DNA from: a virus
Taxonomy: Duplodnaviria; Heunggongvirae; Uroviricota; Caudoviricetes
Direction: 5' to 3' (one strand)
IMG/VR virus record: IMGVR_UViG_2734482773_000004
DNA: 35,714 nucleotides
In this document: one piece after another, positions 583 through 28,668 of the stretch
How the letters are laid out: the number at the start of each line of letters is the position of its first letter
How positions within the stretch are numbered: the stretch's first letter is position 1
Program-made: the position numbers and the translations under genes
Notes under the pieces: generated by a model
What the model was told of the DNA's origin: nothing
Databases searched by the model: none
The model's input: only the letters and a program-made list of their open reading frames with translations

Positions 583-1596
583 TTACTCTACTGTGGACAC
601 TGTGTGGACACTCTCGGCCTCAGTACCACCTCTTAGCGGATTAAGAGAAATGGCGTCCTGAAGGTACTCTGGCGCAAAATGAGCGTAAACCATCGTTTGC
701 TCAATCCGCGTGTGACCTAGTATCCGTTGTAGCGTAATAATACTTCCTCCATTAATCATGAAATGAGTGGCAAAGCTGTGCCTTAGTGCATGTGTGGCTT
801 GCCCCATTGGCAAATCCGGTTTTATTGCTTTCATTGTTCGTCTGAAGCGAGGGTAATCAGCATCAGGGAATAAAAAACCTCGTTTGTTATCCGCGATCAT
901 TTTGGCAACAGCCTCTGAGATCGGGACGGTGCGTGGTTTGTTTGTTTTCGTTTTAACAAACGTGACGCGGTTATGGATGATATTTTCTGCTTTCAAACGA
1001 GCTGCTTCTCCCCAACGTGCTCCTGTACTCAGGCAAAGAATCGCAATCTTTTTATTGTCGCCGTCAAGTGCTGCAAGCAGTAAGGCAATTTCTTCCTGTG
1101 TGAGATAGCCTGTTTCTGGTTTTTCCTCCTTAAGCCTCTTTGTCCCTCTGATAGGGTGCTCACCAAAGAATAACTCCGCTTCAATCAGGGCTGTAAACAT
1201 GCCGCTAATACATGTTAAATCACGATTGATACTCGAAGGTTTAATACCCTGACTTCTTCGGGTGGCGCAGTACTGGCTGATAAGGGATTTCGTGATTTGA
1301 AATGCGCATGGGTCATTCGTTATTTTTGTGAAGATTTCAATTTTTCCAAGATTAGATTTCCCATGCTCTTCGTGTTTACCCTTTAAATCCCACCAGATCT
1401 GTGTCAGTTCCGACAGACGTCGTTTGTCTGTTGGTTTTGATAGCCATTCTTTATTGTGGTGGTTGTACAACGTGTATTTCTCGAAAGCGACAGCTTCGCT
1501 TTTCTTATCAAACTTCCTACGGATGCGTTTTCCATTACGTCCAGTAGGGCGGATGTCCACTTCATATCGACCATCATCGAGTTTTTTGATTGCCAT
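583..1596 (-). CDS. int: Tyrosine integrase, 337 aa (P2 Int-like)
   Basis: Tyrosine recombinase motifs (TGARWGE, HALRHSFATHF, LGHTRIEQTMVYAHF); adjacent to att core; same length as P2 Int. Confidence 0.93.
   Translation of the reverse strand: MAIKKLDDGRYEVDIRPTGRNGKRIRRKFDKKSEAVAFEKYTLYNHHNKEWLSKPTDKRRLSELTQIWWDLKGKHEEHGKSNLGKIEIFTKITNDPCAFQITKSLISQYCATRRSQGIKPSSINRDLTCISGMFTALIEAELFFGEHPIRGTKRLKEEKPETGYLTQEEIALLLAALDGDNKKIAILCLSTGARWGEAARLKAENIIHNRVTFVKTKTNKPRTVPISEAVAKMIADNKRGFLFPDADYPRFRRTMKAIKPDLPMGQATHALRHSFATHFMINGGSIITLQRILGHTRIEQTMVYAHFAPEYLQDAISLNPLRGGTEAESVHTVSTVE
592..612. promoter_or_regulatory. Putative Int arm-type binding sites, tandem tgtggacact x2
   Basis: Two 10-bp direct repeats with 11-bp period inside the int 3' end; similar TGTGG(A/T)C repeats at 34123..34143 in the other arm. 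Confidence 0.4.
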
Positions 1597-1711
1597 CAGA
1601 AAACCCTCCGAGTGGTGTGTTTTTTTGCGACTACTAATCGCTTTTTTCGTGGTGGCTGAAATTTAGCCACCAATAGTAGGCACTTGTAATGAATATATTC
1701 ACGATGAATTG

Positions 1712-2582: not shown

Positions 2583-3079
2583 CAGTGATGACGCTTAATC
2601 TCGTCGAAAAACAGCCAGCAGCTATGCGCCGGATAATTGGTAAGCATCTTGCCGTCCCTCGCTGGCAGGAGACATGCGATTATTATAATCAGATGATGGA
2701 ACGCGAACGGCTAACGGTTTGCTTCCATGCGCAGTTAAAACAGCGTCACGCAACGATGCGTTTTGAAGAAATGAATGATGTCGAACGTGAACGACTGGTA
2801 TGTGCAATTGATGAATTGCGTGGGGCATTCTCAAAACGCCGTCAGGTTGGCGCAAGTGAGTATGCATATATTAGTTTTTTAACAGTCAGTCAGCGTCGCA
2901 CTTTATTTATGCACGCACGACTGACAGAAAAAGAATTTAACCAGCCATACTGGCGAATTAATGAAGAATCATGTTACTGGCGTGATGCTTTATTCCGTGC
3001 ATTACGTGAATTATTCAGTCTGTTTGAGTATGCACCGACAATTCTGACGTCGGTAAAACCAGAGCAATATCTGCATTAA
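2579..3079 (+). CDS. B: Replication protein B, 166 aa
   Basis: Position after cox and length equal to P2 B; start overlaps the preceding ORF stop. Confidence 0.85.
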   Translation: MTVMTLNLVEKQPAAMRRIIGKHLAVPRWQETCDYYNQMMERERLTVCFHAQLKQRHATMRFEEMNDVERERLVCAIDELRGAFSKRRQVGASEYAYISFLTVSQRRTLFMHARLTEKEFNQPYWRINEESCYWRDALFRALRELFSLFEYAPTILTSVKPEQYLH

Positions 3080-3109: not shown

Positions 3110-3367
3110 TTGTGCGGGGCTTCTTTTTGCCTGGAGAAAGTCATGCATACAGTTTCTGAAAATCAGTGCGGTAAATACGCATTACTGCTGCAACAGGCCA
3201 GAACCGAAGCACAGGCCGACGCAGCGACGCGCTTTTCTTCTCATCTTGACGCCATGATTCGCCACATCACAAAGGCGGAGTTATCCCGCGTGGAGATAGT
3301 CGAGCTGCTCAGTCAGGAGTCGGAAAAATTTCACAATATCGGATTGTCTCGCGGGGAGGTGCTTTGA
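3110..3367 (+). CDS. Small early protein (P2 orf80 position); start may be the internal ATG at 3143
   Basis: ORF in early operon, same strand and tightly packed. Confidence 0.55.
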
Positions 3368-3666
3368 TGTCCTGTTCTCATTCAGTTGTATTACTGAATA
3401 ACGCCTTAAAAATCGCCGTTATGAAAAATGGCGATTTGTCTCTTATTCAACTTTGCCTTGATAAAGAAAAACGCGACATAACTGAATCTGTTATCGCGAT
3501 TTATCAGAATGAATTAAACCTCCTGTCTGATGTGGTCAATTTACTTGTTAAACGCGCTGTATTCCACAAGCAAATTTCCTCAGTGGATGAACTGACAAAA
3601 TTAACGACAGAACTTGCCAGTTATTGCGCTGATGTATCCAGGCAACTTAACGATAAAAGGAGCTGA
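3364..3666 (+). CDS. Small early protein (P2 orf81 position), 100 aa
   Basis: ORF overlapping the upstream stop (ATGA-type coupling) in the early operon. Confidence 0.6.
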
Positions 3667-3893: not shown

Positions 3894-4165
3894 GTATTCG
3901 TATTGAAATTGGCGAACGTTATGTCGTTACCAGTGACAGCTTTCAGTTTATTCTCCACGAGAAAAAGAGAGCGGAAAGCGGTAAAAACGCCGGTCAGGAA
4001 TGGTTGGCGGTGGTTGGTTATTATCCGAAATTAAGCCAGCTCGTTTCCGGCCTGATGCATCACGATATTCTGACCGGAAGCGCAAAGTCTTTTGCTGATT
4101 TAAACGCGCAGGTTGAGCAACTCAGCAGGCGTTGTTCAGAGGCTTTTGGCTCATATGGCCGTTAA
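3890..4165 (+). CDS. Small early protein (P2 orf83 position), 91 aa
   Basis: ORF in early operon immediately upstream of A. Confidence 0.6.
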   Translation: MSIRIEIGERYVVTSDSFQFILHEKKRAESGKNAGQEWLAVVGYYPKLSQLVSGLMHHDILTGSAKSFADLNAQVEQLSRRCSEAFGSYGR

Positions 4166-6419
4166 AGCCTCCGGGCGTTTTGTCCCTCCGTCAGCATTTT
4201 CCGCAGGCACCGGTAAGACGTTTGCCGGTGCTTATGCATGGAACGCGCCACGCGAGGCTGTCGGGCGCGAAAGACCCCTTACACGTGACGAGATGCGTCA
4301 GGTGCAAGGTGTTTTATCCACGATTAACCGCCTGCCTTACTTTTTGCGCTCGCTGTTTACTTCACGCTATGACTACATCCGGCGCAATAAAAGCCCGGTG
4401 CACGGGTTTTATTTCCTCACATCCACTTTTCAGCGTCGTTTATGGCCGCGCATTGAGCGTGTGAATCAGCGCCATGAAATGAACACCGAAGCGTCGATGT
4501 TGTTTCTGGCTGAGCGTGACCACTATGCGCGTCTGCCGGGGATGAATGACAAGGAGCTGAAAAAGTTTGCCGCCCGTATCTCATCGCAGCTTTTCATGAT
4601 GTATGAGGAACTCTGCGATGCCTGGGTGGATGCGCATGGCGAAAAAGAATCGCTGTTTACGGATGAGGCGCAGGCGCATCTGTATGGTCATGTTGCTGGC
4701 GCTGCACGTGCTTTCAATATTTCCCCGCTTTACTGGAAAAAATACCGTAAAGGACAGATGACCACGAGGCAGGCATATTCTGCCATTGCCCGTCTGTTTA
4801 ACGATGAGTGGTGGACTCATCAGCTTAAAGGCCAGCGCATGCGCTGGCATGAGGCGTTACTGATTGCTGTCGGGGAGGTCAATAAAGACCGTTCTCCTTA
4901 TGCCAGTAAACATGCCATTCGTGATGTGCGTGCGCGCCGCCAGGCAAATCTGGAGTTTCTTAAATCATGTGACCTTGAAAACAGGGAAACCGGCGAGCGC
5001 ATCGACCTTATCAGTAAGGTGATGGGCAGTATTTCTAATCCTGAAATTCGCCGGATGGAGCTGATGAACACCATTGCCGGTATTGAGCGTTACGCCGCCG
5101 CAGAGGGTGATGTGGGGATGTTTATCACGCTGACCGCGCCGTCAAAGTATCACCCGACACGTCAGGTCGGAAAAGGAGAAAGTAAAACCGTCCAGCTTAA
5201 TCACGGCTGGAACGATGAGGCATTTAATCCGAAGGATGCGCAGCGTTATCTCTGCCGTATCTGGAGCCTGATGCGCACGGCATTCAAGGATAATGATTTA
5301 CAGGTCTACGGTTTGCGTGTCGTCGAGCCACACCACGACGGAACGCCGCACTGGCATATGATGCTTTTTTGTAATCCACGCCAGCGTAACCAGATTATCG
5401 AAATCATGCGTCGCTATGCGCTCAAAGAGGATGGTAACGAAAGAGGAGCCGCGCGAAACCGTTTTCAGGCAAAACACCTTAACCGGGGCGGTGCTGCGGG
5501 ATATATCGCAAAATACATCTCAAAAAATATCGACGGCTATGCACTGGATGGTCAGCTCGATAACGATACCGGCAGGCCGCTGAAAGACACTGCAGCGGCT
5601 GTTACCGCATGGGCGTCAACGTGGCGTATCCCGCAATTTAAAACGGTTGGCCTGCCGACAATGGGCGCTTACCGTGAACTACGCAAATTGCCTCGCGGCG
5701 TCAGTATTGCTGATGAGTTTGACGAACGCGTCGAGGCTGCTCGCGCTGCCGCAGACAGTGGTGATTTTGCGTTGTATATCAGCGCGCAGGGTGGGGCAAA
5801 TGTCCCGCGCGATTGTCAGACTGTCAGGGTTGCCCGTAGCCCGTCGGATGACGTTAACGAGTACGAGGAAGAAGTCGAGAGAGTGGTCGGCATTTACGCG
5901 CCGCATCTCGGCGCGCGTCATATTCATATCACCAGAACGACGGACTGGCGCATTGTTCCGAAAGTTCCGGTCGTTGAGCCTTTGACTTTAAAAAGCGGCA
6001 TCGCCGCGCCTCGGAGTCCTGTCAATAACTGTGGAAAGCTCACCGGTGGTGATACTTCGTTACCGGCTCCCACACCTTCTGAGCACGCCGCAGCAGTGCT
6101 TAATCTGGTTGATGACGGTGTTATTGAATGGAATGAACCGGAGGTCGTGAGGGCGCTCAGAGGCGCATTAAAATACGACCTGAGAACGCCAAACCGTCAG
6201 CAAAGAAACGGAAGCCCGTTAAAACCGCATGAAATTGCACCATCTGCCAGACTGACCAGGTCTGAACGATTGCAAATCACCCGTATCCGCGTTGACCTTG
6301 CTCAGAACGGTATCAGGCCGCAGCGATGGGAGCTTGAGGCGCTGGCGCGTGGAGCGACCGTAAATTATGACGGGAAAAAATTCACGTATCCGGTCGCTGA
6401 TGGTTGGGGGGATTCATAG
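4155..6419 (+). CDS. A: Rolling-circle replication initiator A (HUH endonuclease), 754 aa from ATG 4155
   Basis: HUH-like motif PHWHMMLF and Tyr-containing YIAKYISK; N-terminus MAVKASGRF matches recalled P2 A; the ORF track extends to 4113 but 4155 is the likely start. Confidence 0.9.
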   Translation: MAVKASGRFVPPSAFSAGTGKTFAGAYAWNAPREAVGRERPLTRDEMRQVQGVLSTINRLPYFLRSLFTSRYDYIRRNKSPVHGFYFLTSTFQRRLWPRIERVNQRHEMNTEASMLFLAERDHYARLPGMNDKELKKFAARISSQLFMMYEELCDAWVDAHGEKESLFTDEAQAHLYGHVAGAARAFNISPLYWKKYRKGQMTTRQAYSAIARLFNDEWWTHQLKGQRMRWHEALLIAVGEVNKDRSPYASKHAIRDVRARRQANLEFLKSCDLENRETGERIDLISKVMGSISNPEIRRMELMNTIAGIERYAAAEGDVGMFITLTAPSKYHPTRQVGKGESKTVQLNHGWNDEAFNPKDAQRYLCRIWSLMRTAFKDNDLQVYGLRVVEPHHDGTPHWHMMLFCNPRQRNQIIEIMRRYALKEDGNERGAARNRFQAKHLNRGGAAGYIAKYISKNIDGYALDGQLDNDTGRPLKDTAAAVTAWASTWRIPQFKTVGLPTMGAYRELRKLPRGVSIADEFDERVEAARAAADSGDFALYISAQGGANVPRDCQTVRVARSPSDDVNEYEEEVERVVGIYAPHLGARHIHITRTTDWRIVPKVPVVEPLTLKSGIAAPRSPVNNCGKLTGGDTSLPAPTPSEHAAAVLNLVDDGVIEWNEPEVVRALRGALKYDLRTPNRQQRNGSPLKPHEIAPSARLTRSERLQITRIRVDLAQNGIRPQRWELEALARGATVNYDGKKFTYPVADGWGDS

Positions 6420-6668: not shown

Positions 6669-8885
6669 CTAAGCGGTAACGTTCTCCTCTTCTAGTTCGT
6701 CCATCATTTTTAAATAATGCATTTCGTCACCAGTAGCTGAAAATATTGTTCTCAATTGTTTTAGGTATTTATCTGGGTCTATGTCGCCCATATCAGTAAT
6801 ATTTACCGCATCAGAGTGAGAACCTCTGTTAATGTATCTGTAGAATGCTTTGAAATCACTGTTGCTATCGTCGCGTGCCAACTTTGTTAATTCATCTTGT
6901 AGAGCATCTGTTCTATGAACAAATGCAAAATAATATTCTAGTATGTTTCTCATAATATTAGGTATTATGATTTTGTTTGCTTTGCCATCTTTTGCATCTT
7001 TTAATATTTGCCACAAAGATTGATATTCATTCTGTATGCTGTTTTTTTGTATTTCAGTAATTATACTAAAATCATTTTTCGTTACTCTACCTAGATAATA
7101 GTTTTTCTTAAATAGTTTGTCTTCTCTGCTTTTAGGAGATAGCTTAATAAGTTCATGAAAGAAATAAAGATTGTGAGTAAGGATTAATACCTTCTTTGTT
7201 AATTCATTTTTTATAATGTGGTGATGAATAATTGATGCGATGTCGTAGACATAGTTTTGCGATAGACTAGATATTGGATCGTCAATAACAATAAAAATAT
7301 CCCTGCTATCGGTATCATTTTTATCGGTTTTACCTTTACAGCACTCTAAAAAATAAAGAAACGTTATTAGTGTTTTTTCACCTTCGCTAAGAGATCTATA
7401 AACATTTTGGTTTTTTGTATGCCCTGGTCGAGATATAATGTACATATCTTTTCTTTCTGCATGTTTTTCAATACAAAAACCAGAGATCCCTAGATTTTTT
7501 AAATGGGTGTTTATTGAGTCTATCGTAGAATCAATGTTAGATATTTTATCTCGCAATGCTTTTATTGTGAGATTATTTTCTTTTCCTTGTTGCTCAATAT
7601 TATTTAATTCATCATGAACTTTCTTTTTGATATCAAAGAATTTTTCTTTGTGTTTGGATAAATTCTCTAAATCATCGCTGCAAAAAGCATGGAGAGCCCC
7701 CCAAACTTGTTTTCCGATTTTATTCTCATACTCTTTGAGTTTTTTAACCTTATCATTTATGTCTCTTATTTTTTTGTTAACAGCGTCTATGCTTTCCTGA
7801 ACATGATTTTCTAGTTCTTTATCAATTTCTAATGTAACGCATGTTGATGGATTGTTGATCTTATCAATAATGTTTATTAAATTTTTTTCTGCAATGTTTT
7901 GCAATATTTTAATATTGGAAATAATGATCTCTTTATCTTTCTCATTGATTAGTGCACATGATGATATATTGTTTTGTATTTCGTTAAAATGATATATGGT
8001 ATTTTTCTCATAAACTGACTTTATATCTGAGAGCTGTTTTACTTTCTTTGAATAACTTTCGTCAAATATTGATTTAAGGGCATTTAAAAATTCGTGACTA
8101 ATAGTTTTTTCCTGACAAAACGGACATGTAGAACCGTCTAAATAATGTTCTTTACCTTTTTTTACCCAGTCAAGATTATGAAGTTTATTAATGGTTTCTG
8201 ATAAATAGCTATTGCTTGTATCTATTATAGGGGTTGCTAATGTATTTACATCATCAATTGATGGGGTATATGGGTGTAAAGGAGTTATTAATGCGGTTTC
8301 ATTGTTTCTATTTTCTAATAGTATAGAGTATTCTTTTGCTATATCATTTAAATTAATAAAGGTGATTGGTGAGGATGATTTTATCATCTCAAAAAAAGGT
8401 CTTTTATAGCCAACTTTACCTTTCATTAAGGTTTTTAGTACAGAGTTTCTGATTGGTTCTGTTTTTTTCCAGATCGATTCGATGTATTCATTTTCTTTTT
8501 TTTCCATTTCTGCTTCTAATTTCAATAACACTCCTTTTTTTTGTCTATATTGCTCTGTAAGTTGCTGTTTAATTGCTTCTTTTTTAATTAATTGTTTTTC
8601 AATATCTGCATTTTCTTTACTTAATGTAAAAACACCTTTTTGTTCCTGTGCATTGTAGAAATTATCTTCAATAAATTTAGTGTTGTAAACAAGAGGTTTG
8701 TAATTGTCAAGAAGGGTACATTCACACTCGTTATAATCTGTGTGTGTAGAGTCGTAGAAATAATTTGAAATGGTAGATTTGCCACAACCATTTTGGCCGT
8801 ATAGTATGTTTACTCTTTTTTCAAGATTCAGTATTGTGAAGGCGTCTTTCTTATAACTGGTAACATTTTTTAATCTAAGTTCCAT
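6669..8885 (-). CDS. Cargo: Rad50/RloC-like ABC ATPase with CxxC zinc-hook-like motif and putative C-terminal nuclease domain, 738 aa
   Basis: Walker A GQNGCGKST, long coiled-coil insert with CPFC, signature LSEGEKT, Walker B IFIVIDDP, H-loop LTHN; C-terminal R-x3-E...H pattern; AT-rich; in the A-cos variable locus. Confidence 0.7.
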   Translation of the reverse strand: MELRLKNVTSYKKDAFTILNLEKRVNILYGQNGCGKSTISNYFYDSTHTDYNECECTLLDNYKPLVYNTKFIEDNFYNAQEQKGVFTLSKENADIEKQLIKKEAIKQQLTEQYRQKKGVLLKLEAEMEKKENEYIESIWKKTEPIRNSVLKTLMKGKVGYKRPFFEMIKSSSPITFINLNDIAKEYSILLENRNNETALITPLHPYTPSIDDVNTLATPIIDTSNSYLSETINKLHNLDWVKKGKEHYLDGSTCPFCQEKTISHEFLNALKSIFDESYSKKVKQLSDIKSVYEKNTIYHFNEIQNNISSCALINEKDKEIIISNIKILQNIAEKNLINIIDKINNPSTCVTLEIDKELENHVQESIDAVNKKIRDINDKVKKLKEYENKIGKQVWGALHAFCSDDLENLSKHKEKFFDIKKKVHDELNNIEQQGKENNLTIKALRDKISNIDSTIDSINTHLKNLGISGFCIEKHAERKDMYIISRPGHTKNQNVYRSLSEGEKTLITFLYFLECCKGKTDKNDTDSRDIFIVIDDPISSLSQNYVYDIASIIHHHIIKNELTKKVLILTHNLYFFHELIKLSPKSREDKLFKKNYYLGRVTKNDFSIITEIQKNSIQNEYQSLWQILKDAKDGKANKIIIPNIMRNILEYYFAFVHRTDALQDELTKLARDDSNSDFKAFYRYINRGSHSDAVNITDMGDIDPDKYLKQLRTIFSATGDEMHYLKMMDELEEENVTA

Positions 8886-9388: not shown

Positions 9389-10423
9389 TCAGTCGTTGTC
9401 AGTGTCCAGTGAGTAGTTTTTAAAGCGGATGACCTCCTGACCGAGCCAGCCGTTTATTTCCCGAATCCTGTCCTGTAACGGGATAAGCTCATTGCGGACA
9501 AAGACCTTTGCCACTTTCTCAATATCACCCAGCGACCCGACGTTCTCCGGCTTGCCGCCCATCAACTGAAAGGGGATGCGGTGCGCGTCCAGCAGGTCTG
9601 CGGCACTGGCTTTTTTGATATTAAAAAAATCGTCCTTCGTCGCCACTTCACTGAGCGGGATAATTTTAATGCCGTCGGCTTTTCCCTGTGGGGCATAGAG
9701 AAACAGGTTTTTAAAGTTGTTGCGGCCTTTCGACTTCACCATGTTTTCGCGAAGCATTTCGATATCGTTGCGATCCTGCACGGCATCGGTGACGTACATG
9801 ATGTATCCGGCATGTGCGCCGTTTTCGTAATACTTGCGGCGGAACAGCGTGGCCGATTCATTCAGCCAGGCAGAGTTAAGGGCGCTGAGATATTCCGGCA
9901 GGCCGTACAGCTCCTGATTAATATCGGGCTCCAGCAGGTGAAATACGGAGCCGGGCGTGAAAGGTGTCGGCTCGTTGAAGGACGGTACCCACCAGTAAAC
10001 ATCCTCCTCCACACCACGGCGGGTATATTTTGCCGGTGAGGTTTCCAGTCTGATGACCTTACCGGTGGTGCTGTATCGCTTTTCCAGAAACGCATTACCG
10101 AACACCAGAAAATCCAGCACAAAGCGGCTGAAATCCTGCTGGGAAAGCCACGGATGCGGGATAAATGTCGAGGCCAGAATATTGCGTTTGACGTAAATCG
10201 GGGAGCTGTGATGCACGGCAGCACGCAGGCTTTTTGCCAGACCGGTAAAGCTGACCGGTGGCTCATACCATCTGCCGTTACTGATGCACTCAACGTAATC
10301 CAGAATGTCACGGCGGTCGAGTACCGGCACCGGCTCGCCAAAGGTGAATGCTTCCATTTTCGGGGCGCTGGCGGTCATTGTTTTTGCCGCAGGTTGCGGT
10401 GTTTTCCCTTTTTTCTTGCTCAT
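9389..10423 (-). CDS. Q: Portal protein Q, 344 aa
   Basis: Position next to cos, divergent from O; length equal to P2 Q. Confidence 0.92.
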   Translation of the reverse strand: MSKKKGKTPQPAAKTMTASAPKMEAFTFGEPVPVLDRRDILDYVECISNGRWYEPPVSFTGLAKSLRAAVHHSSPIYVKRNILASTFIPHPWLSQQDFSRFVLDFLVFGNAFLEKRYSTTGKVIRLETSPAKYTRRGVEEDVYWWVPSFNEPTPFTPGSVFHLLEPDINQELYGLPEYLSALNSAWLNESATLFRRKYYENGAHAGYIMYVTDAVQDRNDIEMLRENMVKSKGRNNFKNLFLYAPQGKADGIKIIPLSEVATKDDFFNIKKASAADLLDAHRIPFQLMGGKPENVGSLGDIEKVAKVFVRNELIPLQDRIREINGWLGQEVIRFKNYSLDTDND

Positions 10424-21830: not shown

Positions 21831-24149
21831 ATGAGCACAAAATTCAGAACCGTTATCACCACTGCCGGTGCAGCAAAGCTGGCAGCGGCAACCGCACCGG
21901 GAGGGCGGAAGGTCAACATTACCACGATGGCCGTCGGGGATGGCGGTGGTAAATTGCCTGTCCCGGATGCCGGACAGACCGGGCTTATCCACGAAGTCTG
22001 GCGACATGCGCTGAACAAAATCAGCCAGGACAAACGAAACAGTAATTATATTATCGCAGAGCTGGTTATTCCGCCGGAGGTGGGCGGTTTCTGGATGCGT
22101 GAGCTTGGCCTGTACGATGATGCAGGAACGTTAATTGCCGTGGCGAACATGGCCGAAAGTTATAAGCCTGCCCTTGCCGAAGGCTCAGGGCGTTCGCAGA
22201 CCTGCCGCATGGTCATCATCGTCAGCAGTGTGGCCTCAGTGGAGCTGACCATTGACACCACAACGGTGATGGCAACGCAGGATTACGTTGATGACAAAAT
22301 TGCAGAGCACGAACAGTCACGACGTCACCCGGACGCCTCGCTGACCGCAAAAGGTTTTACTCAGCTAAGCAGCGCGACCAACAGCACGTCTGAAACACTG
22401 GCCGCAACGCCGAAAGCGGTAAAGGCCGCCTATGACCTTGCTAACGGGAAATATACTGCGCAGGATGCCACCACGGCGCGAAAAGGCCTTGTTCAGCTCA
22501 GTAGTGCGACCAACAGCTCGTCTGAAACGCTCGCCGCAACGCCGAAAGCGGTAAAGGCAGCATATGACCTTGCTAACGGGAAATACACTGCACAGGACGC
22601 CACCACCGCGCGAAAAGGCCTTGTTCAGCTTAGTAGCGCCACCAACAGCGATTCTGAAACGCTTGCGGCAACACCAAAGGCGGTTAAGACAGCGTATGAC
22701 CTTGCTAACGGGAAATACACTGCACAGGATGCCACCACTGCGCGAAAAGGTCTTGTCCAGCTAAGTAGCGCCACCAACAGTGATTCTGAAACCCTCGCGG
22801 CAACGCCAAAAGCAGTGAAGTCTGCCTATGACAATGCTGAAAAACGTCTTCAGAAAGATCAGAACGGTGCGGATATTCCGGGAAAGGATACCTTCACGAA
22901 AAATATCGGAGCCTGTCGTGCTTATAGCGGCGCTTTGAGCACTGAAGCCGGAAACTGGACAACCGCTCAGTTTATTGAATGGCTGGATTCCCGTGGTGCA
23001 TTTAATCATCCGTACTGGATGTGCAAAGGCTCCTGGTCATATGCAAATAACAAAATCATTACGGATACCGGATGTGGTGATATCCACCTGGCTGGTTGTG
23101 TCGTCGAGGTCATGGGAACTAAATCTGCAATCACTATCCGAGTGACCACGCCGACAACATCAAGCGGTGGCGGTACAACCAGCGCGCAATTCACTTACAT
23201 TAATCATGGGGACGGCTACTCCCCCGGCTGGCGTCGTGACTGGAATCGTCAGGGCGACTCAATGACCGGAACGATTAATCAGGATGGCGGAAGCCAGAAT
23301 GCCTATATGTCTACGGCCTTATGTTCAGGCACCAGAGGCGGCAAAAAATATCTCAGAAAGTTTCGTGGTGGAGAAGGAGACACTATCTGGCATGAAACAG
23401 TACAGGGCGGGGTAGTTCGCTGGGCGACTGGTAATACTGATGCTCAGGAAGAATTATCACTCAGCTCCGCTTATGGTCTCCGTTCAAGAGGTGAGATTAC
23501 ATCAAGCAGTGCTAATGGTCTGCGCATTGCTTATGGCAATTATGGATTCTTTATCAGGAATGATGGCAGCAGCACTTATTTTATGTTGACTAAATCAGGT
23601 GACAGATTAGGCACTTATAATAATTTAAGACCACTGATTATAAATGATGCCACGGGTGCTGTATCAATGGGGCATGGCCTGAGTGTTACTGGTGATATTG
23701 CCTCAAGTACCAAAGTACGTGCCGGTAGCGGGAAAAAATTCACGGTCAGCAGCAGTAATACATCCACGAAGGAAGCCGCATTCAATTTGTGGGGCAACTC
23801 AAGTCGTCCGGTGGTGGCTGAATTAGGTGATGATGCAGGCTGGCATTTTTACAGTCAGAGAAATACAGATAACAGCATCACTTTTGCTGTTAACGGGCAG
23901 GTATCACCATCTAACTATAGTAATTTTGATTCACGCTATGTCCGGGATATCCGGCTTGGTGGTGCTGCCACATACAAACCTGCGAACAATGGCATGACAT
24001 GGACACATCAGGCACCGTCCGGGTGTGTATATTCCGGCATTATTGTTCAGGATACCGGCTCAAACTCTGCCGATAACATTGGTGGCGTATATTACAGACC
24101 GGTGCAGAAATACATTAACGGGACTTGGTATAACGTGGCGCAGGTATAA
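21831..24149 (+). CDS. H: Tail fibre protein H, 772 aa, with four tandem 44-aa repeats and a divergent AT-rich C-terminal domain
   Basis: Position after I; about 100 aa longer than recalled P2 H (669 aa), roughly the size of the repeat expansion; C-terminal half lies in lower-GC DNA. Confidence 0.88.
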   Translation: MSTKFRTVITTAGAAKLAAATAPGGRKVNITTMAVGDGGGKLPVPDAGQTGLIHEVWRHALNKISQDKRNSNYIIAELVIPPEVGGFWMRELGLYDDAGTLIAVANMAESYKPALAEGSGRSQTCRMVIIVSSVASVELTIDTTTVMATQDYVDDKIAEHEQSRRHPDASLTAKGFTQLSSATNSTSETLAATPKAVKAAYDLANGKYTAQDATTARKGLVQLSSATNSSSETLAATPKAVKAAYDLANGKYTAQDATTARKGLVQLSSATNSDSETLAATPKAVKTAYDLANGKYTAQDATTARKGLVQLSSATNSDSETLAATPKAVKSAYDNAEKRLQKDQNGADIPGKDTFTKNIGACRAYSGALSTEAGNWTTAQFIEWLDSRGAFNHPYWMCKGSWSYANNKIITDTGCGDIHLAGCVVEVMGTKSAITIRVTTPTTSSGGGTTSAQFTYINHGDGYSPGWRRDWNRQGDSMTGTINQDGGSQNAYMSTALCSGTRGGKKYLRKFRGGEGDTIWHETVQGGVVRWATGNTDAQEELSLSSAYGLRSRGEITSSSANGLRIAYGNYGFFIRNDGSSTYFMLTKSGDRLGTYNNLRPLIINDATGAVSMGHGLSVTGDIASSTKVRAGSGKKFTVSSSNTSTKEAAFNLWGNSSRPVVAELGDDAGWHFYSQRNTDNSITFAVNGQVSPSNYSNFDSRYVRDIRLGGAATYKPANNGMTWTHQAPSGCVYSGIIVQDTGSNSADNIGGVYYRPVQKYINGTWYNVAQV
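22350..22877 (+). repeat. Four tandem 132-bp (44-codon) in-frame repeats within H
   Basis: aaagg repeat anchors at 22350, 22482, 22614 and 22746 (period exactly 132); protein unit is approximately KGLVQLSSATNS-SETLAATPKAVKAAYDLANGKYTAQDATTAR. Confidence 0.9.
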
Positions 24150-24152
24150 TTT

Positions 24153-24680
24153 ATGCAGCATTTGATAAATATAACGGCAGGTAATCCAAAAACGGTTGAA
24201 CAATATCAATTGACAAAGGATTTTGATGTTGTCTGGTTTTTTACAGAAGATGGTAAGAACTGGTACGAAGAACAAAAGTATTTTGCTGATGACACGATAA
24301 AAATAGCGTACGACAAAGATAATATCATCCGCTATGTGGAAAAGGATGTGACAGCTATCAGACCGGATGGATTAAGTGTGGTTGAAGTGGCGGATATTAC
24401 TGCTAACCGACGGGCGGATATTTCAGGGGGCTGGATGTTTAAGGACGGCAAAGTGATTAAACGCATTTATACGGCAGAGGAATTACAGCAGCAGGCAGAA
24501 ATTCGGAAAGCCAGACTTCTTGCAGATGCTGAATCCGTGATTTTGCCGCTGGAGCGCGCGGTCAGACTGAACATGGCAACAGATGAGGAGCGTAGCCGAC
24601 TGGAAGCATGGGAGCGCTACAGCGTTCTGGTCAGTCGTGTGGATCCTGCAAATCCTGAATGGCCGGAAATGCCGCAATAA
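24153..24680 (+). CDS. G: Tail fibre assembly chaperone G, 175 aa
   Basis: Immediately downstream of H; length as P2 G; AT-rich 5' portion. Confidence 0.85.
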
Positions 24681-24849
24681 GTTGTATGAGCTCTGGTGTG
24701 AGCTTACATATCTATGGCACAGAGTAAAGCCTAATCTGACAGTCAGCTCTGTGCCAAAAGCAGACGTTCAAGTTATACTGTCCATTTCTGCAATCAGTCA
24801 CCTGCAACTATGCGGCCAATTGCAAAGATGGCGGTAATAAACAATAGTT

Positions 24850-24885
24850 GATTTGCCGGCGTGGTCGTATAAATGCTGGCAAATC
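24850..24885 (-). terminator. Possible terminator hairpin downstream of the minus-strand cargo gene
   Basis: gatttgccggc (24850..24860) pairs with gctggcaaatc (24875..24885) with one mismatch; moderately T-rich following sequence on the minus strand. Confidence 0.3.
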
Positions 24886-24925
24886 CCCTCTTGACGTAAT
24901 TCCCAGCCCCATCCGGACACGATAG

Positions 24926-25630
24926 TCATTTTGTTTTCATATCGTTTTTTAAGCTCTTCTGTTTGAACTCCAACCCATTAATATTCTCCATGCGAAAGTA
25001 AGTCAGCTGATGAATCACTTTCCCGTTAACCACGTTCCATGTAAAAACATTTTCGTCATACACTTTTGCTATTGCATATTCTTTATTATTCATGATAAAT
25101 ACTGTGAATTCGTTGCCGTGAACAGATGATCTACCCAGTCCTATAAAGGTAAGGGAAAAGAAGAAAGCAATGGCTGCACCGTTGAGAGCCTGAATACCAA
25201 ACTCTCTGATATTCCCTCTATCAAAGGAAGCATTTTTCTTTTCAACATGGATAGGTATCCACTGGCTCAGCAAGTGTAAAAGAACGAGCGCATTAAAAAC
25301 AAAAAGCAGCAGAATGTCGAGTGGAATGTTTAGCATGGAATATGCACCGGCCACATATACTACGCTTATCCCTAAATGTGCAGCGGCTCTTTTATGTTTA
25401 TCATCCTTCGCCCATATAAGAAAAGCAGTGGATATCGTCAATAAAGGAAATGAAAAAAGACATATACTCATAATGTCATTGCTTATCGTGGGAATGCTGA
25501 GAGTTATTAAATCCAACGGTATATTCAGCTCACTGGCGACCCCCCTTTCATAAAAATATACGGCGGCATAAAAAGCTGCCGTCAGGCCCGCTACAAATAA
25601 AGATTCTTTTTTTAAGATATAGTTGTACAT
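24926..25630 (-). CDS. Cargo: polytopic membrane protein (about 4 predicted TM helices) with small C-terminal soluble domain, 234 aa
   Basis: Hydrophobic segments at roughly residues 11-27, 45-70, 83-120 and 150-168; AT-rich; minus strand within the G-FI variable locus. Confidence 0.65.
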   Translation of the reverse strand: MYNYILKKESLFVAGLTAAFYAAVYFYERGVASELNIPLDLITLSIPTISNDIMSICLFSFPLLTISTAFLIWAKDDKHKRAAAHLGISVVYVAGAYSMLNIPLDILLLFVFNALVLLHLLSQWIPIHVEKKNASFDRGNIREFGIQALNGAAIAFFFSLTFIGLGRSSVHGNEFTVFIMNNKEYAIAKVYDENVFTWNVVNGKVIHQLTYFRMENINGLEFKQKSLKNDMKTK

Positions 25631-26157
25631 AACATTCCTGTAATGCTTTTTTCAGCATATCAAATTGCCTGACTGGCCCGACAACTCATTTCATAACGAA
25701 CTAAATGTTCGCAAAATGCAGGGAGTCAGAGACTTCTTTTCGGTCTGATTAATACTCCCAAACCACCGCGATGTCCCTTACACTGAAGAGAATGCGATAG
25801 CATCAGAAATAATTTATCAGTTCAGATTCGTTGAGTTCTATGACTATGAGCACGTGTATTTCCTTGATTGCCGTTCCATCACGACAGGTCCGCAACGTGC
25901 TAGAAATAGATATTATAACATTTGTATGTCCTAATTTCCTAGAGCTGTGAGCAGATCAACGTCATTTCGTCCTGACCGGCCCCCTATACTTCCTACAGTT
26001 CTGATGTTGCTGCTGGGCGAAGCTGAAATCGAAGGAGGGAATACTCTTATTTAACGTTAGCGGAGAATGTGTTTCGACAAAATCCGCTAATTTTACCACA
26101 AAAAATGAGGGAATGGGCTAAGCCCAATTAAGCTTATTAAACAAATAATCTGAAGAT

Positions 26158-27123
26158 TTATTTGTTGGCATTTTTCTCTTTTCCGAATTTGTATTTTAGT
26201 TCATCTACTGTAATGATATCTATCTCAATTGGGAAATTGGCTTTACGCTTGATTTTTGAAATCAGCTTCATGAATGAGTTCGCTTCATTATAATTTTTTG
26301 CCGTGATTACATAGACAATATAGACTCTAAAGCCTTTAAAATGCCTCCAGCTCTCGTTGATCAAATCTAGGGTGCTAAGAATATTAGCGCTCTTCAGCGG
26401 ACTAAACACATCGATTTCCAAGAAAATAATTTCACCAGTTAAAACTCCATTGGAAATTGGAGGGTAATAAGCGCCATCAAAATTGTGATAACCGAATTCA
26501 TTTCTCATCTCGGTTTTGTCAACATCAAAACTTACATCAAGCTTAGATTCAGCATATTGAAAAGCCATATATGATACTTCATTACCGAGTTTTTTAAGCA
26601 TTTTCTCCTTCTTGTCAACAGTCTCAGAGACAGAATTCAAGGGGGAGGTCTTTAATGATGGGATAATGGTGCCTACCGAGAAATATTTGTCATCTTGTTT
26701 AGAGGACTCACTTTCTTGTCGACTGTTTTCATCTTTACCAGCAAACTCATTATTTTTAGGAGTCATTTCCTCTTCTAATATAGATACGTTTGGCACATCA
26801 TTTTTATCTAATGGGGAGGTAATGGATATACCCTGCAGACCTATCAAAGTCATATAGTTTTTCTCATCCGCAAAATCACTGGGAGCATAAAGGGACTCCG
26901 GCTTCTTATGGAGAGTGAAAAAAAATAGACTAACTAAGAATGTAGGGAAGAACATTAGAAAAAATATATATATTTTTTGATTTGGCTCGGATATCCATGG
27001 GAGTATTGCTGTACCGCTTACCTCTGCTAGCCCAGCAAACATTGCAATAATAGTTAAGGGGTTTTTTACTAATGAAATAGCACCAGCCATTGTCATATCC
27101 TTATAAAAATTCAAATAGCTCAT
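26158..27123 (-). CDS. Cargo: membrane-anchored protein (2 N-terminal TM helices, acidic/Ser-rich linker, C-terminal domain of about 150 aa), 321 aa
   Basis: N-terminal hydrophobic helices, low-complexity linker (EEEMTPKNNEFAGKDENSRQESESSKQDDK), AT-rich; minus strand within the G-FI variable locus. Confidence 0.65.
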   Translation of the reverse strand: MSYLNFYKDMTMAGAISLVKNPLTIIAMFAGLAEVSGTAILPWISEPNQKIYIFFLMFFPTFLVSLFFFTLHKKPESLYAPSDFADEKNYMTLIGLQGISITSPLDKNDVPNVSILEEEMTPKNNEFAGKDENSRQESESSKQDDKYFSVGTIIPSLKTSPLNSVSETVDKKEKMLKKLGNEVSYMAFQYAESKLDVSFDVDKTEMRNEFGYHNFDGAYYPPISNGVLTGEIIFLEIDVFSPLKSANILSTLDLINESWRHFKGFRVYIVYVITAKNYNEANSFMKLISKIKRKANFPIEIDIITVDELKYKFGKEKNANK

Positions 27124-27385
27124 TGCGACACACGCTCACCAGAGCGTGAAATTTGTTCATATCTTAATTATTAAAACCTACTGAGTCCACAATGTCATTT
27201 TATCTCGCTGGAGTCCAGAGTGACCAGTTCCCAGTGATTGACAATTAATGTTGTTAGCAATGCCTGCATCTCGCTCAAAGCAGACTGTCAGATTTGACAA
27301 AGTTTTGGCTACGTAATTTGTCAGTTGGAAACTGAGTGAGTGCAAATCATGACAGGTAGGCGGATTACCCGCCTTTTCTTTGTCT

Positions 27386-27395
27386 GTTGTTTCAT
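27386..27395. promoter_or_regulatory. Candidate late-promoter motif TGTTGTTTCA upstream of FI
   Basis: Variant of the decamer found upstream of O and V, followed by CTGACCAG similar to the V upstream CTGACAGA. Confidence 0.35.
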
Positions 27396-27477
27396 CCACT
27401 GACCAGCCAGGTCAAATAGCGTCTCATGCTCTGCACAACAGAAAATAGTTGCACCCATTAACCACGGAGTTAAACGG

Positions 27478-28668
27478 ATGAGTGACTATCATCACGGCGT
27501 GCAGGTGCTGGAGATTAACGACGGCACCCGCGTCATTTCCACCGTATCCACCGCCATTGTTGGCATGGTCTGCACGGCCAGCGATGCGGATGCGGAAATC
27601 TTCCCCCTCAATAAACCGGTGCTGATTACCAATGTGCAGAGCGCAATTGCAAAGGCCGGTAAAAAAGGCACGCTGACGGCGTCGTTGCAGGCCATCGCTG
27701 ACCAGTCAAAACCGGTCACCGTTGTTGTGCGCGTGGAAGACGGCACCGGCGACGACGAAGAAACGAAACTTGCGCAGACCGTTTCCAATATCATCGGCAC
27801 CACCGACGAAAACGGTCAGTACACCGGACTGAAAGCCCTGCTGGCGGCGGAGTCGGTAACCGGTGTTAAACCGCGTATTCTCGGCGTGCCGGGACTGGAC
27901 ACCAAAGAGGTGGCTGTTGCACTGGCATCAGTCTGTCAGAAGCTGCGCGCTTTCGGATATATCAGCGCATGGGGCTGTAAGACCATTTCCGAGGTGAAAG
28001 CCTACCGCCAGAATTTCAGCCAGCGTGAGCTGATGGTCATCTGGCCGGATTTCCTCGCATGGGATACGGTCACCAGTACCACCGCCACCGCGTATGCCAC
28101 CGCCCGTGCGCTGGGTCTGCGCGCTAAAATCGACCAGGAGCAGGGCTGGCATAAAACGCTGTCCAATGTCGGGGTGAACGGTGTTACCGGCATCAGCGCA
28201 TCCGTCTTCTGGGATTTGCAGGAGTCCGGCACCGATGCTGACCTGCTTAACGAGTCAGGCGTCACTACGCTGATTCGCCGCGACGGTTTCCGCTTCTGGG
28301 GTAACCGTACCTGCTCCGATGACCCGCTGTTCCTCTTTGAAAACTACACCCGCACCGCGCAGGTGCTGGCCGACACGATGGCTGAGGCGCACATGTGGGC
28401 GGTGGACAAGCCCATCACCGCAACGCTGATTCGCGACATCGTTGACGGCATCAATGCCAAATTTCGTGAGCTGAAAACAAACGGCTATATCGTGGATGCG
28501 ACCTGCTGGTTCAGCGAAGAATCCAACGATGCGGAAACCCTCAAGGCCGGAAAACTGTATATCGACTACGACTATACCCCGGTGCCTCCTCTCGAAAACC
28601 TGACCCTGCGCCAGCGTATTACCGATAAATACCTGGCAAATCTGGTCACTTCGGTTAACAGCAATTAA
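27478..28668 (+). CDS. FI: Tail sheath protein FI, 396 aa
   Basis: Position and length as P2 FI. Confidence 0.92.
   Translation: MSDYHHGVQVLEINDGTRVISTVSTAIVGMVCTASDADAEIFPLNKPVLITNVQSAIAKAGKKGTLTASLQAIADQSKPVTVVVRVEDGTGDDEETKLAQTVSNIIGTTDENGQYTGLKALLAAESVTGVKPRILGVPGLDTKEVAVALASVCQKLRAFGYISAWGCKTISEVKAYRQNFSQRELMVIWPDFLAWDTVTSTTATAYATARALGLRAKIDQEQGWHKTLSNVGVNGVTGISASVFWDLQESGTDADLLNESGVTTLIRRDGFRFWGNRTCSDDPLFLFENYTRTAQVLADTMAEAHMWAVDKPITATLIRDIVDGINAKFRELKTNGYIVDATCWFSEESNDAETLKAGKLYIDYDYTPVPPLENLTLRQRITDKYLANLVTSVNSN

Follow-up and report, generated by a model that had tools for sequence, protein, structure and literature searches.

A gene-free spacer in the cargo island of a P2-like prophage: a probable recombination seam between two single-gene modules

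The 527-bp spacer that separates two cargo genes of a P2-like prophage is probably the seam left where recombination joined two single-gene cargo modules, each mobile on its own, and not a functional element itself. Alignments with related loci show that it is composite: the flanks of two genes meet in it at a boundary palindrome that has decayed. A preliminary description of this DNA, made from the sequence alone, had named a promoter, a small RNA, a short peptide gene or the remnant of a displaced gene as its possible content, and overlooked its mosaic nature, in which two gene flanks meet at a relic palindrome. As intergenic DNA the spacer is an ordinary mosaic, one case of the recombinational patchwork known from P2 hotspots, and its only unusual trait is its non-coding length within a compact prophage. 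A long stretch of prophage cargo without genes does not have to conceal a gene or an RNA; the leftover flanks of two joined modules can account for it. The spacer itself is of little import, and the boundary palindrome that came to light with it is the more interesting by-product.

The window, by which we mean the whole 35,714-nucleotide stretch analysed (IMG/VR record IMGVR_UViG_2734482773_000004), is a P2-like prophage, and the spacer lies within the cargo island of its Z/fun hotspot. Annotation of identical E. coli loci places the cargo between the genes G and FI. Only 2 of 5426 E. coli genomes carry this cargo; a further 1770 match only the first ~88 bp and/or the last ~219 bp of positions 24681-27477, and the unrelated cargo found there, among the matches listed, encodes HTH plus acetyltransferase, FRG, SMEK and DUF4145 proteins. 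A blastn search of the spacer against phages gave no match.

The spacer runs from 25631 to 26157, between the start of the 234-aa gene (25630) and the stop of the 321-aa gene (26158), both on the minus strand. Its description as an ORF-free interval is borne out, with exact coordinates and no ORF longer than 45 aa. The longest frame opened by ATG, GTG or TTG has 45 aa, the longest stop-to-stop stretch is 61 codons, and RefSeq places no annotation inside the spacer in the two E. coli genomes that have the identical sequence. The absence of an ORF of at least 60 aa is at chance level: none occurs in 58% of 2000 dinucleotide shuffles of the spacer, and 74% of 2000 such shuffles contain an open stretch of at least 61 codons. 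As for the patchy composition noted earlier, the GC bump is real but slight (0.43 against 0.35-0.39), with a GC content of 0.433 in 25700-26050 and of 0.391 and 0.346 at the two spacer ends; the two cargo genes have 0.382 and 0.354, and the whole cargo 0.387. Relatives have a gap of similar length (524 bp in locus L003, 528 bp in locus L100). Direct repeats of the type III antitoxin type were looked for in the gap and this candidate was rejected, as the search returned just one 11-nt pair.

Neither of the two cargo genes is a known defence gene. Their proteins have no Pfam match and no PADLOC match, and protein searches returned small families for both. The model of the 321-aa protein starts with a two-helix membrane domain at the N-terminus, continues with a disordered linker and ends in an alpha/beta domain, which shows weak matches to restriction-endonuclease-like folds (Foldseek, E at least 0.02). 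The Foldseek partners of the protein at this level (E at least 0.02) are R.BspD6I, Avs4, Can2, NucS, Cdn1 and Hachiman nuclease domains, and its N-terminal part matches PHROG 26238, which has no assigned function. The 234-aa protein, also a membrane protein, is predicted to have five long helices and a C-terminal beta-sheet domain; its model gave no significant structural match, and a scan of viral contigs for relatives of the 234-family found none.

As a pair with the ~525-bp spacer the two genes are also found in a metagenome contig (L043; spacer 98.5% identical) and at two different non-prophage chromosomal sites (L003/L004 and L100; spacer 88-91% identical). Because pair and spacer are intact in three contexts, namely the E. 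coli P2 prophage, L003/L004 and L100, the arrangement could be selected as a unit. Each gene is also found without the other. A 321-family gene lacking the 234-aa gene follows the primase in a P4-like satellite (L008/L009), occurs in lambdoid prophages (L010, L101 and L102) and adjoins umuDC in L011. A 234-family gene lacking the 321-aa gene is found beside the P2 portal (L007 and L103), beside BrxC and a helicase (L005) and in Aeromonas (L104), and in L105/L106 a TIR-DUF3298 gene lies upstream of it instead of the 321-aa gene.

When the whole cargo was compared with these loci by BLAST, homology to those with only the 321-family gene extended across that gene and ended inside the spacer, at 25916 for L011, 26003 for L010 and 25995 for L008/L009. 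Homology to L105/L106 extended from 25905 to 24867, with 92% identity to the window. The homologies of the two modules end within ~10 nt of each other, on a palindrome at 25911-25888. The breakpoints at 25916 and 25905 indicate that the proximal ~245 nt of the spacer belong to the 321-aa gene and the distal ~275 nt to the 234-aa gene. Module A is thus probably made up of the 321-aa gene, ~160 nt upstream of it and a 3' tail of ~245 nt, and module B, with the same confidence, of the 234-aa gene, its leader of ~275 nt and ~60 nt downstream. The earlier suggestion that the two cargo genes are separate transcription units is supported by this modularity: they behave as separate units in that each is found elsewhere without the other and has kept its own flank of the spacer.

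The ends of the homology blocks show the same short sequence at every module boundary, a palindrome with a 24-nt core, GTCYGCT-NN-TGGCAC-NN-AGCRGAC. The copies that matter here, D and U at the two cargo edges and J at the seam, are listed with the other features in Table 1. Copy D is the sole match in the window at up to three mismatches, where 0.00 are expected by chance. Copy U is inverted relative to D, and the two lie within a 36-nt inverted repeat (24733-24768 and 27259-27294) that is 78% complementary. Homology with the non-prophage copies L100 and L003 stops exactly at D, and homology with L100, L003 and L008 begins exactly at U.

Table 1. Features of the cargo island and its neighbours, in coordinates of the window.
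Feature	Position	Strand	Remarks
Tail-fibre assembly gene G	24153-24680		G-side neighbour of the cargo island
Palindrome D, G-side cargo edge (GTCTGCTTTTGGCACAGAGCTGAC)	24742..24765	-	19/20 match
Module B gene, 234 aa	24926..25630	-	ORF, family, structure model
5' leader/upstream region of module B	25631..25905	-	Inherited with the 234-aa gene
Palindrome J, decayed internal copy (ATCTATTTCTAGCACGTTGCGGAC)	25888..25911	-	Exactly at the module seam
A/T-rich 5' extension of palindrome J (CATACAAATGTTATAAT)	25912..25928	-	TG at 25920-25919, TATAAT at 25917-25912
3' tail of module A, non-coding	25912..26157	-	Inherited with the 321-aa gene
Module A gene, 321 aa	26158..27123	-	ORF; 310 aa in RefSeq, from an internal ATG
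Palindrome U, FI-side cargo edge, TCGCTC-loop variant (GCCTGCATCTCGCTCAAAGCAGAC)	27262..27285	+	18/20 to the variant consensus
Tail-sheath gene FI	27478-28668		FI-side neighbour of the cargo island

Copy J matches the core at 15 of the 20 specified positions, a score reached by 0.5% of 1500 shuffles of the spacer (p about 0.005), and its orthologues in L100 and L105 match at 17 of 20. The predicted fold energy is -1.9 kcal/mol for J, -7.7 for D, -9.1 for U and -14.7 for a canonical copy (z -5.4). The 7-bp hairpin is not formed by J, whose folding is no better than that of its shuffles, and as J no longer folds we regard it as a relic and not as an intact member. It is preceded by an A/T-rich extension, which is ACATACAAATGTTAGAAC in relatives; in L105 the palindrome downstream of the 234-aa gene has this extension before it, as have the palindromes at the ends of the 321-family genes in L008, L010 and L011. 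Matching palindromes close the 234-aa gene (D in the window, 3268-3291 in L105) and the 321-family genes of L008 and L010. Three other identities for the palindrome were considered by eye: a sigma-54 promoter was rejected, TGGCAC being present but at the wrong spacing to the GC element, and neither XerCD dif/cer sites nor intrinsic terminators gave a fit.

In the most likely history, the palindrome would once have marked the end of module A, a place that it keeps in other elements, and module B would then have joined by recombination in or next to it. The internal copy J would have decayed after the joining because nothing selects for an internal copy. The tail would be the untranslated 3' end of the 321-aa gene. 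The 234-aa gene would have its ribosome-binding site, and probably its promoter, in the leader, which would allow separate expression of the two genes. An AGGA Shine-Dalgarno sequence is present 7 nt before the ATG of the 234-aa gene. An intrinsic terminator scan of 25631-26157 found no site on either strand; TGGGCTTAGCCCA has a 5-bp stem, with a T-run 9 nt away.

A promoter for the 234-aa gene within the spacer, as the preliminary description had proposed, is plausible. A putative extended -10 element of consensus sequence, TGTTATAAT, was read by eye on the minus strand at 25920->25912, and may serve as the promoter of the gene, in which case the 5' UTR would be ~270 nt long. A two-hexamer promoter scan, which needs both hexamers and is blind to an extended -10, found nothing in the spacer. 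The same site reads TGTTAGAAT in L100, TGTTAGAAC in L003 and in the downstream copy of L105, and TATTAGGTA in L011. Besides the window, only L043 and the two identical copies in E. coli have the perfect -10. Two substitutions in the window convert TGTTAGAAC into TGTTATAAT, and this origin makes the promoter-like element a lineage-specific by-product of the A/T-rich extension.

Transcription from TGTTATAAT would also be the starting point of a regulatory 5' UTR of the 234-aa gene (riboswitch-like, a thermosensor or an sRNA target) in the distal half of the spacer. Such a role, which would account for the retention of the leader and would supplement the seam explanation, not replace it, strikes us as unlikely. 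The leader of ~275 nt does stay with its gene despite the new upstream partner in L105, 170-340 bp of non-coding DNA lie upstream of every 234-family gene examined, and a long imperfect hairpin is predicted around 25815-25745. However, a substitution in L105 breaks this hairpin, L003 and L105 lack the -10 element, the fold z-score of the leader is only -1.12, and there is no Rfam match. The leader is 89-92% identical in close relatives, where the genes are 91-94% identical, but in 234-family members at 40-66% protein identity (L005, L007, L103 and L104) it is unalignable, with no common 10-11-mer.

The tail is alignable at 72-75% identity in L008-L011, over the first ~160-240 nt after the 321-aa gene, and on this figure we first favoured a conserved 3' RNA element. 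Comparison with four-fold sites of the gene led us to reject it. Over its first 155 nt the tail has an identity of 0.69-0.82 in the 11 deeper pairs, against 0.60-0.74 at four-fold sites, and in all 15 pairs the ranges are 0.69-0.91 and 0.60-0.90. The four-fold-site identity of the 321-aa gene to the window is 73% in L011, 60% in L010 and 63% in L008, and is low because the protein evolves fast (71-75% amino-acid identity). As the neutral sites of the gene themselves show 60-74% identity at this divergence, shared ancestry explains most of the tail signal. Tail divergence is ~0.7 of neutral, and tail identity consistently exceeds that of the four-fold sites by a few to 14 points, with most of the excess conservation gone once gaps are counted as differences. 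Any constraint on the tail would be weak at most, for instance that of a 3' end or a processing signal, and coding is excluded by indels of 1, 2, 8 and 10 nt among the relatives. Taken together, the comparisons give neither half of the spacer the appearance of a discrete element, and suggest a constraint that is weak at most.

We consider it very unlikely that the proximal ~160-245 nt encode a functional non-coding RNA, whether a 3'-UTR-derived sRNA or an RNA that is the partner or antitoxin of the membrane protein. An RNA of this kind would explain why the tail accompanies the 321-aa gene across different mobile elements and is slightly more conserved than four-fold sites, and the tail has invariant blocks (AAAATTAGCG, GATAAGA and CAGGTCAG) as well as two CU-rich ATTCCCTC(C/A)TT motifs. 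Against it, the consensus fold that RNAalifold computes for the tail reaches only -16 to -17 kcal/mol over 250 columns, and the covariation terms for the two strands are +1.6 and -0.01, in a test whose power is low at 3-6 independent lineages. L008 and L010 disrupt the best tail hairpin (TTAGCGGA…TCCGCTAA), and the element is missing from 321-family loci at no more than 67% protein identity (L030, L031, L101 and L102). Fold z-scores are ordinary for the tail (-0.25) and for the whole gap on the plus strand (-0.16). The covariance-model check of 24600-27500 against Rfam at E up to 10 returned only chance-level matches of eukaryotic snoRNA type, all outside the spacer, and no family reaches E=0.3 inside it; ARAGORN found no tRNA or tmRNA. 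The small RNA suggested earlier is thus not supported, given the lack of an Rfam match, ordinary fold z-scores and covariation that is essentially nil.

That a third gene once stood between the cargo genes and decayed into the spacer is highly improbable. In favour of the idea are the unusual length of the gap, the reported frequency of small intergenic pseudogene fragments in P2/P4 defence loci (PMC13586616), and a protein-like plus-strand frame of ~142 codons that just two stops interrupt. This frame was rejected as a gene: its longest open part, 61 codons, is of a length reached by 74% of shuffles, and it gains extra stops and frameshifts in L100 and L003. Six-frame translation of the spacer gave no Pfam match and, in PHROGs, a best E of 0.27-0.34, which is not significant; a concatenated six-frame query against 5.8 billion proteins returned nothing at E up to 10. 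The two halves of the spacer, moreover, have separate histories tied to the flanking genes, and the decayed gene of the preliminary description is not supported. A short peptide gene can be all but dismissed, as the several ORFs of 25-45 aa in the gap have no homologues and, by eye, no convincing ribosome-binding site, and none is preserved across L100, L003 and L011, the candidate frames all being interrupted in relatives by indels and new stops.

The seam explanation directs attention to the palindrome itself, whose border copies have a precedent. GenBank records AJ512676-AJ512683, which cover the Z-region of P2-EC30, -EC46, -EC48 and -EC58, label the borders of that region 'left inverted repeat' and 'right inverted repeat'; we take the records to be those of Nilsson, Karlsson & Haggard-Ljungquist (Mol Biol Evol 2004). 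Positions 24660-24769 of the window align at 93-95% identity to the annotated left inverted repeat, with D at its inner end, which shows that the border repeats were already known. As in the P2-EC Z-regions, D and U lie at the inner ends of the repeats and the cargo lies between G and FI. Copy J differs in being internal, decayed and without any annotation, and the 24-nt core, unlike the P2-EC borders, is also found at cargo junctions of non-P2 prophages and chromosomal islands. Copies between cargo genes are present in P2-EC46 (1580-1634) and in both spacers of P2-EC48 (1402-1425 and 2713-2736), and internal copies also occur in L005 and L132. L003 has paired copies at five intergenic sites in 10.7 kb. 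A text search of the literature for the sequence strings of the palindrome found no paper.

Two families of repeats resemble the palindrome in part. REP elements are hotspots of recombination and insertion, and REP/BIME sequences are likewise short imperfect extragenic palindromes, often in pairs of two variants at a fixed distance. The palindrome differs from them in its low copy number in E. coli (a median of one BLAST place per genome having any) and in its conserved loop, TGGCAC/TCGCTC, and the E. coli REP consensus is unrelated to it in sequence. With integron attC cassettes the likeness is one of layout only: a one-gene unit that ends in an imperfect palindrome, stacked arrays, and the same genes in different arrays. 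The orientation of the palindrome is fixed to the phage backbone, however, and not to the gene. An attC site was rejected because the right flanks (TGTCAG, AACCAC, GCCCAC, ATCTCA and others) lack GTTRRRY and there are no paired RYYYAAC/GTTRRRY core sites, and no integron integrase is found among the called genes of the loci examined.

Rapid swapping and stacking of cargo at fixed P2/P4 hotspots has been described (Rousset et al. 2022, PMC9122126; Moura de Sousa et al. 2026, PMC13586616), with near-identical cargo in other mobile elements and at cryptic chromosomal sites, and with short non-coding leftovers read as remnants of recombination. In neither paper is a sequence element named for the junctions, and both leave the mechanism of exchange unresolved. 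The window fits these mosaics in its swapped and stacked cargo, in the occurrence of that cargo elsewhere and in its non-coding leftovers; it differs in that its junctions coincide with a defined palindrome and in that its cargo has no PADLOC match.

It is conceivable, if doubtful, that the palindrome and its TCGCTC-loop variant are the actual site at which modules of accessory and defence genes are exchanged. The palindrome would then be a hairpin-forming junction common to the hotspots of P2-like phages, P4-like satellites, lambdoid prophages and chromosomal islands. A dedicated recombinase, or recombination driven by hairpins or microhomology, might cut, stack and move single-gene modules there, and J would be the scar of one such event. 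Were this so, it would supply the mechanism of exchange between unrelated elements that is missing from the recent hotspot surveys. Exchange sites of this kind would also provide a sequence handle for the automatic delimiting of cargo modules and a route to test the movement of defence genes between unrelated mobile elements. Alternatively, the palindromes might be insulators or terminators, or no more than edges of a common backbone that offer homology.

The motif lies at the junction of variable and conserved DNA in well over 100 phage contigs with several backbones. An exact-pattern scan of viral contigs found the palindrome in at least 120 of them, and among the matches listed 123 viral instances sort into 81 clusters by their 40-nt left flanks and into 42 by their 40-nt right flanks, the two largest right-flank clusters holding 25 and 21. 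The P2 G-side class, again among the matches listed, comprises 21 instances with 16 different cargo-side flanks. In one large class the palindrome is located in a non-P2 prophage and adjoins DUF977 and an S24 repressor. Beside this class lie a protein with a weak, sub-threshold N-terminal match to HEPN/RES (E 2e-4) and a GNAT-like protein.

Junctions between cargo and backbone, and between one cargo gene and another, are marked by a 24-nt palindrome and its TCGCTC-loop variant. The palindrome has the consensus GTCYGCT-NN-TGGCAC-NN-AGCRGAC, in which the loop is conserved, and the TCGCTC-loop variant is often located 15-20 nt from a TGGCAC-type copy. It is present in P2-like prophages, in other prophage types and in chromosomal islands, with exact copies in at least 120 viral contigs, where the flank on one side is variable and that on the other side is conserved. 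The border copies were already known, being labelled as inverted repeats in the 2004 GenBank records of P2-EC phages (AJ512676-AJ512683); internal copies and those outside P2 carry no annotation in the records examined.

Location of palindrome copies, cargo genes and neighbouring features
Feature	Sequence	Position	Strand	Remark
Palindrome D (G-side cargo edge)	window	24742-24765	-	motif match
Palindrome U (FI-side edge), TCGCTC-loop variant	window	27262-27285	+	motif match
Palindrome J (decayed copy in spacer)	window	25888-25911	-	motif match
Palindrome copies	L003, chromosomal gene pair	607-672, 2338-2404, 3303-3368, 5866-5928, 6951-7013		motif match
Palindrome copies	L005	3509-3574, 4877-4940		motif match
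Palindrome copy	L229 (P2-EC46)	1580-1634		motif match
Palindrome copies	L230 (P2-EC48)	1402-1425, 2713-2736		motif match
Backbone hairpin	window	24715-24758	+	predicted
321-aa gene	window	26158-27123	-	
234-aa gene	window	24926-25630	-	
738-aa ORF	window	6669-8885	-	between gpA-like gene (4113-6419) and portal gene (9389-10423)
Tail-fibre gene H	window	21831-24149	+	
Repeats in gene H	window	about 22330-22800	+	
TIR-DUF3298 gene	L105	1005-2150		neighbour of 234-family gene
BrxC and DEAD helicase	L005	1-4742		neighbours of 234-family gene
P2 portal-side hotspot	L007, L103			setting of 234-family gene, by ApeA-HEPN or SIR2-STAND genes

A second hairpin is predicted in the P2 backbone immediately outside the cargo, with a 9-bp stem (GGCACAGAG ... 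CTCTGTGCC) and CTGAC-A-GTCAG enclosed. Because this hairpin overlaps the loop of palindrome D, the two are mutually exclusive. Another backbone class has the same layout, with TGGCACA ... TGTGCCA. The 738-aa ORF lies at the old/tin position, where this prophage has its second classical hotspot for cargo, and no palindrome copy matching at 16/20 or better was found there.

The 321-aa protein is modular. Its N-terminus is a two-helix membrane domain (VKNPLTIIAMFAG...YAPSDFxDEKNYM). Dozens of other proteins, from many phyla, carry this domain at ~60% identity, joined to C-termini that are unrelated. The C-terminal domain, modelled with a pLDDT of around 90, gave only weak structure matches (E at least 0.02), every one to a restriction-endonuclease-like nuclease domain (R.BspD6I, Avs4, Can2, NucS, Cdn1 and Hachiman). 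Within the family alignment Asp216 is invariant and Glu236 nearly so; where an E-x-K motif would have its lysine, the window protein has Asp, and the residue varies among family members. When compared with homologues from a P4-like satellite (L008), a lambdoid prophage (L010) and a locus beside umuDC (L011), the protein changes almost as fast as four-fold degenerate sites (identities of 0.71-0.75 for amino acids and 0.60-0.73 for four-fold sites), with replacements mostly within the linker; selection on the gene is thus either relaxed or diversifying.

This one cargo family occupies two hotspots, in the P4-like satellite (L008/L009) and in the P2-like prophage; the proteins share 73% amino-acid identity, and the upstream palindrome and 3' tail are also common to both. 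According to a 2026 survey (PMC13586616), cargo sharing between P2 and P4 almost never occurs.

The 234-aa membrane protein family has defence-like genomic neighbours. For the 234-aa protein itself, neither a PADLOC search nor structure comparison gave a match; a source database gives a faint PF27470 (TfpB) match for one homologue. Elsewhere in the window, the translation of tail-fibre gene H shows a tandem array in which a unit of roughly 44 aa occurs about four times, the unit resembling ...TAQDATTARKGLVQLSSATNSxSETLAATPKAVKxAYDLANGKY....
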